In this document: positions 24,001 to 27,000 of the stretch, in pieces
Position numbering within the stretch: the first letter of the stretch is position 1
Layout of the letters: the number at the start of each line of letters is the position of its first letter
Source of the DNA: Bradymonadia bacterium
GTDB taxonomy: Bacteria > Myxococcota_A > Bradymonadia > UBA7976 > UBA1532
DNA: 56,012 nt
Assembly (NCBI GenBank): GCA_046290225.1
Contig: JBKAGE010000061.1
Coordinates: forward strand, 1-56,012
Direction of reading: 5' to 3'
Position numbers: made by a program

Positions 24001-27000
24001 TCTCGGCGACACGCAGCAGGGTCTCTGTGTCGGTGTAGGGGAGCATCGATCCGAGCAAGACAGGCTTCTCGATGCTCGTCACCTCGACATCGTCGGCAGC
24101 TTTCACCATCACCGGGGTGAGCAGGTCGAGGGGCAGTCCGTCGGCCTGGCCGGTGTGGTGCATCACAATTTGCCTGGCCACAGCATAGAGGGTGACCTCG
24201 TCGAGGGCAGACCACTCGAGCATACCGTTGCGGGTGAGATGCCAGCCCACGGCGGTGCGCCAGGGCTCGGGCAGATTCGACCAGCGCGTGCCCATGGCTT
24301 CGGCGAAGGCGGCATCTTCTCGTTTCATCTGGATGAGATACGAGATGGGATACACATCACCGTCGAGATCGTCACTGCCTGCCATGCGCGAGGTGTAGCT
24401 GCCGTGATCTTTGATGGCTTTGGGGTAGCAGGCCTCCATGGCCAGCACCCACTTGACGAAGTCGTCGGCGTCGAAAGCGTCAGGCTCGTCGTTGATCACG
24501 TTGTAGAGATGCTCCTCTCGGGCGAGGTCGACCTCTCCGGCCCTGAAGGCCGCCCACAAGAGCGTGGAGTGTTTGCCGTCGAACCTCTCTCGACACAGGT
24601 CTCTGATTTTATCGTCGAGGCTGTAGCTGTCGCGGTAGCGCGAGACTAGGCGTGTGAGCTCGGGGAACAGATCTGCTGGATTCGTCATCGGGCCTCCTCA
24701 GGGAAGAGACTCTGGGTATGCCACGACATGTGCCCACGGGGAACGCCGTCGACTTGGCCCGATATGCCATGACCGACGGTTCGGGATGGATGGCACAGAG
24801 GTGGATCTGGCCCGTATGGAGAGCTTCTTCTGAGGTTACTCATCTGAGCGCCACAACAGATCGATGAAGCCGCGCATATAACGCTTGGCGCTCATACGGC
24901 CTCCAGTGACGTGGTCCACCACCTGATCCGCCTGCAGACGAATCGTCCGGCGCTTGTCGCCCCGGGCGCCACCACCGATATCTGCCCGTCGCCGAGCGTT
25001 TTGCTCGGCAGCCCGTGCAGAGCGTGCACGCTCTTGCAGGTGCGCACGCATGATGGCTTTGGCCTGCTGCAGGTTCTGGTGCTGGCTGCGCTCGGACTCC
25101 ACTCGAACCATCAACCCCGTAGGGATATGGGTCAGCTGGATCGCGCTGTCGGTCTTGTTGCGGTGTTGACCCCCGGCGCCGCTGCCGCGGCAAGCCTTGA
25201 ACGTGAGATCACGATCATCGAGACGCATCTCGGAGGCCTGCACCATGGGCAGCACCGACACCGTGATGGTGCTGGTGTGCACACGACCGCGTTTTTCGTT
25301 GGGAGGCACCCTCTGGAACCGATGGCCGCCCGCTTCGTGGGCGAAGGCCTCGGCGGCCCCGGAGCCGCTCACCTGCAAGCAGACGAAGCCGGGGCGCTGG
25401 TCGAGGACTCGGAGGTCAAAGACGTTTGTGATCCGTGTACTTCACGTACAGAGCCATTTGTGCTTCGACGAGGCTCTTGCTGTCGGCGCCGCCCTCGGCG
25501 GCCCGGATCTCCACGATCAGCGTCTGTGATCGCATGGTCTTTCTCCTTGGCGCACATCTGCGCCTGCAAGAAGCCCTGACAGTCAGGGCTTCTGAGTGTC
25601 AGGCATCACATGGTTGTGATGGCATGGCTCACCGCGACGGATGAGCGAGTGGGAGGGTGACGCAAGTGGGTCTCGAGGGCAAATCAGAGCCGATCGAGCC
25701 AGGCCCGCTGAGCATCGCTCACGTTCAGGAGAGGGCGAGTATTTCTGAGGGTTTCGAGAGCCTCATCGACGGATTGGGCTTGCCCGCGAGCCAGCAGAAT
25801 CGCTGCGGCGACAGTCCCGGTACGGCCGTGCCCTTGAGCGACCAGAAAGAAGAGCGCGTATCGCATCTCAGGGCACCAGCCGCCTGAAGCCGTGACCCAG
25901 CACCACCACCAGCTGCGCGAGGTTGCGGACGGGCACCAGGGGCCACCACCAGCGCACGCGTCGATCGTCGCCACGTGCCAGGGCCTCACCGGCTCTCTGG
26001 AGCGTCGCCAGAGACAGCGGGCCGTTCTTGATGGGTGTCAGCCACGCCTCAGGCCAGATCGACGGCCCGTGCTCGACGCCGAAGAGGGCCCCGGCGATGG
26101 CCCCGGTGGTGTCGGTGTCACCCCCGCAGCGCCAGAGTTGGTCCAGGCCTTCACAGGGATCTTCTCTGTGCCGCAGGACTGTGTAGATCACCATGGGGAC
26201 CGTGTGGTGCATGTACCCGGTAATGCCTTCCGACAAACCCAATAGATCTGCAAGGTTCGACACTGTGAGTTCGCCAGCCAAGGCGTGTTGCACCGAGTCC
26301 ATCGCCTCGCGCCATGTGGCGTCTCCGTTTGGCAGCGCGCGCAGGCGGGTGAGCAGATCGGCGACAGGCTCTGTCGAGCCGAGTCTCGACCAGGCCGCCA
26401 CCTCGGCGATGGCCAGGGCCCCTACGAGTGCTTGTGGATCGGTATGGGTCAGCCAGGTCGAGGCCTCCACGTGGGCGAGACGTGCCTCAGCGTCGTCGTG
26501 GAAATACGCGCCGATCATCGGGGCCCGCATGGCCGGCCCGTTCCCTGCAGACCAGACTCCGGCGCGGCGGCTCGGCCAGCCGAGGCACAGCTTGATACAG
26601 GCCCGGGCTGTGCCCAGACCCAAGCCCGGGGGCAGGGCGAGGAACCAGCCCCTCAAGGCCCAGGCGAGCCGGTCGCGGAATGCGTCGACGTCGCCCTGGC
26701 TGGTGATGAGGCTCTGGGCCACGAAGAACGCATGATCGGTGTCGTCGGAGCACATGCCCCAGGGGCCGAGCAGTCGGTGGCGCCAGGGTCCGGGCATACG
26801 TCGGGCGATCTGTCGGGGCTTCAGGCCCTCGGCGGGCAGGCCCACGCTGTCGCCGACGGCGGTGCCCATCAAACAGCCGACGAGGGCGTGCTCTGAGGTC
26901 ATGGTGCTTCCTTGGGGGATTCTGAGTGTTGTGTTGACAATAACCGTCGAGGCCTAGGGTTTCTTTCATGCACGACTCGTGGCACAGATGAAGCGCGCAA

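Follow-up and report, generated by a model that had tools for sequence, protein, structure and literature searches.

We identified a gene for an RF1-like class-I release factor that is divided between two reading frames on the minus strand of the window, by which we mean the whole stretch of DNA analysed (56,012 nucleotides; positions 1 to 56,012 of contig JBKAGE010000061.1, Bradymonadia bacterium assembly GCA_046290225.1). Judged from sequence, two adjacent gene calls are one gene, the product of which lacks domain 1, retains the GGQ motif and is a member of a distinct family of short RF1-like factors. We consider it probable, by analogy with prfB, that this 232-residue factor is made by a programmed +1 frameshift of the prfB type, at a site that is not homologous to that of prfB.

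Organisation of the split gene

The upstream frame is a 39-codon ORF (25535-25416) that begins with ATG at 25535 and ends ...CAC AAA CGT CTT TGA C. A Shine-Dalgarno sequence, AAGGAG (25543..25548, read from the sequence), is located 7 nt 5' of this ATG, and nothing comparable was found in front of GTG 25372, at which the downstream frame had been called to begin. The terminal heptamer CUU UGA C (25415..25421) comprises a P-site Leu codon (CTT, 25421-25419), a 0-frame stop (TGA, 25418-25416) and a 3' C (25415). Past the site, the +1 frame is open for 193 codons as far as the true stop TAA (24838-24836), and it is blocked by a TGA 8 codons 5' of the site, so that the change of frame is confined to approximately 27 nt. 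The gene can be read whole only with a +1 step here: taking CTTT as a single Leu step, as the survey's finding had proposed, leaves one open frame of 232 residues with no further stops and with the trans-frame junction ...HKRL-DLRV....

Frame 0 supplies Met1-Leu39 (25419..25535), corresponding to the first beta strand and helix of release-factor domain 2 with its R-A-A-E-G-G-A-D tip. A Pfam PCRF match (residues 4-92) begins within it and is continuous over the shift site; this frame-0 part aligns without gaps to uninterrupted relatives. The +1 frame supplies Asp40-Glu232 (24839..25417), containing the remainder of domain 2, domain 3 and domain 4. The GGQ catalytic motif in domain 3 (Gly121-Gly122-Gln123, 25166..25174) is invariant in a 12-sequence family alignment, and the codon-recognition tripeptide Pro77-Pro78-Asn79 (25298..25306) occupies the PxT position of RF1, aligning with P-V-T of T. 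thermophilus RF1.

Contigs from two public runs, belonging to two studies, span the shift site without an indel, and the split is thus not an assembly error. None of the runs listed as containing the stretch is an RNA run. Nearly identical environmental strains carry either TGA or TAA at the site (place 25417), the sole strain difference there, meaning that the stop has been preserved. With these features, its AAGGAG ribosome-binding site and the full set of residues that never vary in the 12-sequence alignment, the window copy appears to be intact at the sequence level. No RNA structure was evident around the shift site (z = -0.32), and a promoter and terminator scan returned nothing useful 5' of the gene.

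Family assignment of the 232-residue product

The family scores given by the survey were reproduced exactly. The best match was to RF1, with 195.4 bits for NF001859 (cut-off 400; model positions 104-331 of 347) and 193.7 bits for TIGR00019 (cut-off 423.25), followed by the prfB model (141.6 bits, cut-off 370), the PrfH model TIGR03072 (92.1 bits, cut-off 166.65) and the ArfB model (35 bits, cut-off 100). The product matches RF1 domains 2-4 continuously, with domain 1 entirely absent.

Each of the established identities was considered and rejected. A full RF1 (prfA) is contradicted by scores below the cut-off of both RF1 models and by the missing domain 1, and RF2 (prfB) by a score below cut-off, a PPN rather than SPF tripeptide, the absence of domain 1 and a site in domain 2 instead of near codon 25. 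Similarly, PrfH does not fit a sub-cut-off score and a gene that is not adjacent to rtcB, nor ArfB a sub-cut-off score and a product that has a decoding domain. Elsewhere the genome encodes the ordinary factors: its RF1 and RF2 are 38% and 36% identical to the product, respectively, and a true ArfB scores above cut-off, while no PrfH above cut-off was found in the genome. Three RtcB genes are located on contigs C51, C8 and C54 and none on the window's contig, C61, bearing out the earlier remark on rtcB; RtcB was likewise not found among the neighbours at the window locus or at any relative's locus examined.

The product keeps the residues aligned to those that we take to be the decoding positions of RF1 (a Gln ahead of the loop and His-Thr behind it; PxT in most relatives), and the G-G-x-D tip of the upstream frame aligns with the U1-reading tip of RF1. 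The survey had contrasted a Pro-Pro-Asn loop with the Pro-x-Thr of RF1; PPN is indeed present in the window copy, but it is a minority form, most relatives having PPT, the canonical RF1 type. Other intact members, split and uninterrupted alike, also have PPN, and its replacement of PPT makes the codon specificity of the window copy uncertain.

The fold of domains 2-4 is RF1-like in an AlphaFold2 model of an uninterrupted relative, rather than of the window protein (pLDDT 85.7). This model superposes on ribosome-bound RF1 with a TM-score of 0.90 (rmsd 2.1-2.4 A), compared with 0.83-0.86 for RF2 and 0.64 for PrfH.

Conservation of the split site

We identified the same split in a total of 34 loci, comprising the window, 29 distinct metagenome loci, one duplicate and three species-representative genomes; one further locus (L155), on a contig that is full of errors and carries an inverted duplicate, was left out of the counts. 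All 34 break at one and the same Leu codon, with the heptamers CTTTGAC (19 loci), CTTTAGC (11), CTTTAAC (2), CCTTGAC (1) and CTTTGAG (1). CTT-stop-C is thus found in 32 of 34, the exceptions being one CCT and one G after the stop, and the stop is UGA in 21, UAG in 11 and UAA in two; the survey had noted all three stops among its own relatives. The recurrence of one heptamer class at one codon in every split locus is not chance. Neither the tripeptide (PPT or PPN) nor GC content showed a relation to the type of stop.

A Shine-Dalgarno-like element (GGAGG, GGGAG or GGGGG) lies 3 nt 5' of CTT in 24 of the 34 loci (23/33 in one set of loci, plus L176). The ten loci that lack it are spread over several clades and include the window, which has CAC AAA CGT instead; the stimulator that the survey had called weak is absent here. 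Elsewhere the element appears to be selected at the nucleotide level: where an Arg stands two codons before CTT it is encoded by AGG in 15 of 16 cases, compared with 66 of the 763 remaining Arg codons of those genes. The protein database carries the same signature: of 47 calls that are short at the N-terminus, 30 continue through the site as F-D, F-S or F-N, and 28 of these 30 have G-G right before it. A further CGGAGG-GGT-CTT-TGA-C was identified in a 485-kb uncultured phage record.

The upstream frame is coding sequence under purifying selection, with a pN/pS of 0.34 (8 pairs of relatives), and it is homologous to RF1. The stretch D-L-x-V-L-x-x-R-P-G, which separates the site from the earliest potential start of the downstream frame, is conserved in uninterrupted relatives as well.

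Uninterrupted relatives and the family tree

The survey held that most relatives are split, which depends on the sample. Among 46 family loci sampled as DNA, 30 are split, three are uninterrupted and eight have an in-frame TGA, the other five being one poor contig that shows the cassette, three apparently longer RF1-type genes and one locus cut by a contig end. By contrast, no frameshift is needed for 72 of the best 120 database proteins, which are encoded without interruption, indicating that the gate is dispensable for protein function.

The tree places the family on a side of its own, apart from RF1 (support 90; L168, a wrong piece at a contig end, was left out). Split and uninterrupted forms are interspersed on it: 26 changes of state are needed for the uninterrupted forms, of which at least five are forced by well-supported branches. 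The eight in-frame-TGA loci are one clade of low GC content (0.36-0.47), with TGA at the codon aligned with the shift-site Leu; here the recoding would be readthrough or reading of TGA as Trp, not frameshifting. Family members were recognised by a motif pattern, as the family HMM (A2) does not separate them from RF1, which itself scores 226-245 bits; patterns for the GGQ region run against genome contigs returned 80 ordinary RF1 loci and were uninformative on the family.

Comparison with known systems

The family cassette has the make-up of that of prfB: a G-rich SD-like element, a spacer of 3 nt, CUU, a stop in frame 0 with a C on its 3' side, and continuation in +1. Both host genes encode class-I release factors, and both alternate between split and uninterrupted forms among relatives, with repeated loss. 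The two differ in position, as the family site falls in domain 2, at the codon that stands in place of a conserved Trp, whereas that of prfB lies at about codon 25 of domain 1; relative to this genome's own prfB, the family site is some 135 codons further downstream. They also differ in the encoded protein, which is RF1-like rather than RF2-like, in the SD-like element, missing from 10 of 34 family loci with the window among them, and in the stop. Against the 21, 11 and two family loci with UGA, UAG and UAA, a 2025 prfB survey (12,753 genomes) gives 98.6% TGA, 1.4% TAA and no TAG for prfB (8,164 genomes), and describes prfA as being without a programmed frameshift (PMC12421855).

RF1 is the closest relative in sequence (195 bits) and, for the relative's model, in fold (TM 0.90), and shares GGQ and the aligned decoding residues. 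The family is nonetheless distinguished from it by the absence of domain 1, a 6-residue deletion in domain 2, a score of half the curated cut-off and its separate side of the tree, and the window copy additionally by PPN. PrfH is likewise a short class-I paralogue without domain 1 and of sporadic distribution. However, the solved PrfH matches the product only in the GGQ domain (58.8 bits), its fold is more distant (TM 0.64), and it has lost the stop-codon decoding motifs that the family retains, in addition to the lack of an adjacent rtcB at any family locus examined.

The statement that frameshifting among release factors is known for prfB only proved too strong. An eRF1-type class-I release-factor gene of Mimivirus and Megavirus has CUU UAG C or CUU UAA C as its gate (PMC3521657), and is thus a gated release-factor gene outside prfB. 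That gene differs in having the eukaryotic/archaeal release-factor fold, in eukaryotic translation and in combining readthrough with frameshifting, and it is unrelated in sequence.

Proposed mechanism and function

By analogy with prfB, ribosomes would initiate at ATG 25535 behind its good ribosome-binding site and translate 39 codons. While tRNA-Leu occupies CUU in the P site and UGA-C stands in the A site, some of them would slip +1 from CUU to UUU, resume at GAC and read the remainder of the gene in the +1 frame; those that do not slip would terminate, releasing a 39-residue peptide. The prfB mechanism would thereby have evolved independently at another position, with the shift codon in place of a conserved Trp of RF1/RF2 domain 2. 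The organism's own prfB carries GGAGG-TAT-CTT-TGA-C, and the organism should therefore be able to use such a site; since the window copy has no GGAGG-type stimulator, a lower shift efficiency is expected from the example of prfB.

Termination would be the reaction that competes with slippage, so output should rise when termination at the stop in question is slow. As UGA, UAG and UAA are interchangeable in the family, the gate would appear to be a sensor or limiter tied to general termination capacity, unlike the strict self-regulation of prfB; with RF1-type decoding, a UGA at the site (21/34 loci) cannot be self-regulation. The retained decoding residues and GGQ suggest that the product should be a stop-codon-dependent peptidyl-tRNA hydrolase, which would work without the domain that contacts L11 and RF3. 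We infer a back-up terminator gated by termination capacity; the survey's idea of a back-up factor that responds to a shortage of RF1 or RF2 is plausible.

The gene is rare. It was not found in 60 close relatives and is present in two of 400 other genomes of the phylum, indicating an accessory gene that could be drifting in the lineage, and a motif search of 301 genomes of the phylum Planctomycetota gave three matches, one of them a family member. This patchiness is compatible with another purpose for the same mechanism, which we regard as a genuine but minority possibility: a mobile or phage-derived accessory in conflicts over stop codons, for example against recoded phages bearing suppressor tRNAs or in the service of huge phages, with the gate keeping a potentially toxic factor low. 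Consistent with this, the identity of the stop is unconstrained, there is no conserved neighbour (one cross-locus neighbour pair among 153 flanking ORFs), genes for integrases, TnpB-like proteins, HNH proteins and holins occasionally adjoin the relatives, and one 485-kb phage has a split member, with related genes occurring in further huge phages. Overexpression of a release factor is also toxic in B. subtilis (PMC12421855). However, the window locus is surrounded by ordinary chromosomal genes (transporter, M1 peptidase, PMI/PGM, thioesterase) and a search of 72,556 plasmids gave no match at E 1e-30. The flanking ORFs do not establish a phage origin either, since the majority have no counterpart in Pfam or PHROGs, and some of them may be spurious ORFs of high-GC DNA.

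It is unlikely, in our judgement, that the window copy is instead a decaying pseudogene that has lost its stimulator and makes little or no full-length protein. The rarity of the gene, the PPN tripeptide and the missing SD-like element would agree with decay, and the survey had read the last of these as a possible sign of it. That element is poor evidence, being absent from ten split loci in several clades, and PPN occurs in other intact members, split and uninterrupted. The copy moreover has neither a further frame break nor an internal stop, it retains all the residues that do not vary across the 12 aligned sequences, the upstream frame has a strong ribosome-binding site, and the strain variant merely exchanges one stop for another, TGA for TAA.

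We give very little credence to a reading without frameshifting, in which an internal start yields an N-terminally truncated factor and the 39-codon frame encodes a small peptide or leader. Such models are produced by gene callers, and TTG and GTG codons are found 14-16 codons into the +1 frame of the window. Nevertheless, the consensus cassette has no +1-frame start codon near the site, and the conserved D-L-x-V-L-x-x-R-P-G stretch precedes the first possible start. The upstream frame, for its part, is the first strand and helix of domain 2 with a G-G-x-D tip and is under purifying selection, and GGAGG 3 nt from CTT is the spacing of prfB, not that of a start codon. Mending of the frame in RNA (by transcriptional slippage or editing) or in DNA (by phase variation) is most improbable of all, as the run of three T at the site that might permit it is far below known slippage tract lengths, the conserved stop, 3' C and upstream anti-SD complement matter to ribosomes and not to polymerases, and DNA contigs of other samples show no variation in length at the site.

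Programmed frameshifting by the ribosome thus remains our preferred reading. More speculatively, we suggest that an accessory mini-RF1 family has made its domain-2 Trp codon a recoding gate at least twice, as a prfB-like cassette accepting any stop in bacteria and some huge phages, and as an in-frame UGA in low-GC phage relatives. Synthesis would report on general termination, and the factor might be deployed when RF1/RF2 are depleted, inhibited or out-competed, for instance in phage-host conflicts over stop codons.

Significance

The prfB frameshift is the textbook case of bacterial programmed +1 frameshifting and is treated as unique to RF2. Our search of the literature found neither this short RF1-like family described nor any RF1-type gene with a frameshift; Tables S1/S2 of the prfB survey, which lay outside that search, could list such genes as prfA pseudogenes, of which the supplement has 34. 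The split arrangement is shared by dozens of unrelated environmental relatives. If our reading is true, this is a second, independent release-factor family with the prfB cassette, located at a position not homologous to that in prfB. The presence of UAG in up to a third of the sites would offer a natural experiment on whether the cassette senses RF2, RF1 or both. The family would show convergent evolution of the cassette, and would define a group of uncharacterised short termination factors, the genes of which are at present divided, truncated or labelled as pseudogenes by annotation pipelines.

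Reading frames of the window gene

The release-factor gene lies on the minus strand in two frames. The upstream frame of 39 codons starts at ATG 25535, 7 nt downstream of a Shine-Dalgarno sequence (AAGGAG), and ends ...GAT CAC AAA CGT CTT TGA C; the +1 frame is open for 193 codons to the TAA at 24838-24836. A TGA closes the +1 frame 8 codons 5' of the shift point, and the change of frame is therefore confined to about 27 nt, with CTT TGA C at the 3' end of this stretch. When CTTT is taken as a single Leu step, 232 residues are read without a further break. No RNA structure stood out when the surroundings of the site were folded.

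For this product, NCBIfam and Pfam gave figures identical to those previously claimed. The RF1 models of NCBIfam scored 195.4 and 193.7 bits (model positions 104-331 of 347), the prfB model 141.6 bits, the PrfH model 92.1 bits (below its cut-off of 166.65) and the ArfB model 35 bits, and the Pfam domains PCRF and RF-1 occupy residues 4-92 and 102-208. The RF1 match runs unbroken across residue 39, indicating that the 39-codon frame is the true N-terminus of release-factor domain 2. The survey's finding that the two adjacent gene calls are one 232-residue gene, joined at CUU UGA C, is thus upheld.

The split gene is real DNA, and an assembly slip is excluded. In four public marine metagenome runs, short contigs match it at 99% identity or more, with one exception (95-99%), and two of these contigs, from two studies, extend over the shift site by more than 31 letters in both directions, with no base inserted or missing. 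At position 25417, two runs carry a plus-strand C>T change, which on the coding strand turns TGA into TAA, and one run has TGA; the difference between these near-identical strains therefore keeps a stop at the site.

Distribution and architecture of the short family

The top 120 relatives in the database (E <= 7e-63) are 169-319 residues long and none has domain 1. Of these, 72 are uninterrupted and can be aligned from residue 1, and the N-terminal part is missing in the 47 others, as in the window's own call. Thirty of the 47 short calls have their start 5' of the site and pass through it in the +1 frame as F-D (15), F-S (13) or F-N (2), the translations of TTT GAC, TTT AGC and TTT AAC; in 28 of the 30, G-G, the +1-frame translation of GGAGG, stands directly before the site.

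We scanned metagenome contigs for the family-specific motif QR[VI]PP[TNK]EK, 35 codons 3' of the site, and analysed 80 loci from at least 119 matching stretches. Release-factor genes were found at 46 loci, the remainder being chance matches. Thirty of the 46 are split at the same Leu codon (29 distinct, L164 and L193 being identical), three are uninterrupted, eight carry TGA in frame at the corresponding codon (in one displaced by a few codons), three are longer RF1-type genes and one is cut by the contig end. The last, L155 (Ga0137414_1208829), was excluded from the counts, although the cassette is visible: its poor contig, probably chimeric or rich in assembly errors, contains two inverted gene copies separated by about 1 kb. 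Each copy has several additional frame breaks, and one of them reads GGAGG TCG CTT TAG C. The claim that most relatives are split thus stands for the metagenome loci, but not for the best database relatives.

The family is rare in species-representative genomes. We found no member in 60 genomes related to the window's own; of 400 further genomes from the phylum, two have a member, in each case split at CGT CTT TGA C. By strict motif, one of 301 Planctomycetota genomes has a member, split at CGGAGG GGT CTT TGA C. A search of 50,697 phage records gave one member split by the same sequence, in a 485-kb uncultured phage (L240; LR745208.1:61974-65619 on the reverse complement, with the site at position 1606 of the locus). 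The decoding loop of this phage gene is shortened (Q-R-T-S-N-G-R-I-H-S-S, without PPTEK), so codon recognition may differ. Related short genes are present in other huge phages; one, in a 635-kb uncultured phage (L241; LR745206.1:47479-49359, reverse complement; local GC 0.30), is RF1-like with two in-frame stops within its first 75 codons. At E 1e-30, the plasmid collection gave no matches.

Relation to RF1, RF2 and PrfH

In a FastTree phylogeny of 175 rows, 162 of them from the short family, a single branch (support 90) parts the family from canonical RF1 and RF2, and split forms are intermingled with uninterrupted ones across the tree. The loci with an in-frame TGA, seven of eight being included in the tree, form one clade. 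All eight are of low GC (0.36-0.47; L134, L154, L162, L163, L174, L185, L192 and L178), with the stop about 33 codons 5' of the QRVPPTEK motif, at the codon that corresponds to the shift-site Leu and to the conserved Trp of RF1 (a few codons off in L178).

Against solved structures, the window product matches RF1 best (142.6 bits), then RF2 (99 bits), and PrfH in the GGQ domain only (58.8 bits). The AlphaFold2 model obtained for an uninterrupted relative (pLDDT 85.7) superposes on ribosome-bound RF1 with a TM score of 0.90, on RF2 with 0.83-0.86 and on PrfH with 0.64. The window product keeps Gln74, His86 and Thr87, aligned to what we take, from the literature on RF1 termination complexes, to be decoding positions; it has Asn79 at the threonine of the PxT motif, which is Thr in most relatives, and Asp for the helix-tip Glu. 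Leu39 aligns to the conserved Trp of RF1 (K-G-W). In the genome's own RF2, K-G-W lies about 135 codons 3' of the prfB shift site, so that the positions of the two cassettes are not homologous.

As the survey had reported, RF1, RF2 and ArfB accompany the gene. We find RF1 and RF2 to be 38% and 36% identical to the product and ArfB to score above its cut-off; no PrfH in the genome scores above the PrfH cut-off.

Genomic neighbourhood

The release-factor gene is flanked by genes for an ADP-ribosylglycohydrolase and a DUF4132/HEAT protein, amid ordinary chromosomal genes. All three RtcB genes of the genome are on other contigs, in agreement with the earlier statement that the gene is not beside rtcB, and no RtcB adjoins the family genes at the loci examined. 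We found no conserved neighbour: among 153 flanking ORFs, one pair was similar across loci, small ORFs of unassigned family directly upstream on the same strand (L136:1718-2143 and L175:1934-2293; 40% identity over 115 residues). Integrase, TnpB-like, HNH or holin genes occasionally adjoin family members. At 25569-25593 (minus strand), 34 nt 5' of the ATG, the DNA between the ADP-ribosylglycohydrolase and release-factor genes contains a perfect inverted repeat with 12-bp arms (AGAAGCCCTGAC / GTCAGGGCTTCT) separated by 1 nt; no T tract follows and a terminator scan did not flag it.

The shift cassette

Across 34 split loci (33 analysed together and L176), the site reads CTTTGAC in 19, CTTTAGC in 11, CTTTAAC in two, and CCTTGAC and CTTTGAG in one each. 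As had been claimed, the split is kept with UGA, UAG or UAA in relatives (TGA 21, TAG 11, TAA 2). In 24 of the 34, GGAGG, GGGAG or GGGGG ends 3 nt (once 4 nt) 5' of CTT, the same spacing as in prfB. Codon choice favours the SD-like element: where Arg stands two codons 5' of CTT, it is encoded by AGG in 15 of 16 cases, although AGG accounts for 66 of 763 Arg codons (8.7%) elsewhere in these genes. Over eight pairs, pS is 0.60 and pN 0.20 (ratio 0.34) in a 34-codon core of the upstream frame, indicating that this frame is translated. In one relative (L234/L236, on G252:C14), a threefold tandem repeat of T-A-M-R-P-A-S is inserted in this frame just 5' of the site, and the related G269 copy has an insertion at the same place.

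The earlier suggestion that the window copy, its stimulator being weak, could be decaying is correct as to the stimulator, GGAGG being absent before CTT; the element is also absent in nine other split loci, from several clades. Decay is however opposed by the lack of any second lesion, the retention of all residues invariant in a 12-sequence alignment, the good ribosome-binding site before the upstream frame and the strain polymorphism that preserves the stop. The genome's own prfB (L083:1180-1195, G000:C36) carries the canonical GGAGG TAT CTT TGA C, so ribosomes of this organism use such a site. We consider it likely that the window gene is expressed and depends on frameshifting, probably at lower efficiency than in SD-bearing relatives.

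Precedents for frameshifting in release factors

Full-text searches, as far as the texts were accessible, returned no description of the short family, nor any of programmed frameshifting in bacterial genes of the RF1 type. In the accessible portions of the sources, GeneTack has prfB as the sole release factor among frameshift genes (PMC3711429), the 2016 Atkins review does not mention RFH, prfH or RF1-like genes (PMC5009743), the words 'frameshift' and 'phage' are absent from a 2019 survey of release-factor families (PMC6514570), and a 2025 prfB survey has no programmed frameshift in prfA (PMC12421855). The claim that frameshifting among release factors is known for prfB only needs one exception: a giant-virus eRF1-type gene (PMC3521657) is, within these portions, the sole precedent outside prfB.

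Proposed mechanism and regulation

The anatomy of the site is that of prfB. The ribosome would pause when tRNA-Leu occupies CUU and the A site contains a poor stop (one followed by C); GGAGG, where present, would pair with the anti-SD and help the slip to UUU, and translation would continue in the +1 frame. Slipping would compete with termination, and slow termination should therefore raise output.

In the available text of the 2025 survey, the prfB stop is TGA in 98.6%, TAA in 1.4% and never TAG across 8,164 genomes, a bias its authors take as proof of self-regulation (PMC12421855). The short family differs from this near-uniform TGA in its mixed stops, whose identity flips between close relatives on the tree, even between strains, and showed no tracking with the PPT/PPN tripeptide or with GC content among family loci. 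A factor that decodes as RF1 does could regulate itself at UAG and UAA sites only, and strict autoregulation is therefore not favoured. We favour instead a gate that would be tied to general termination capacity, or that may merely limit a dose-sensitive factor.
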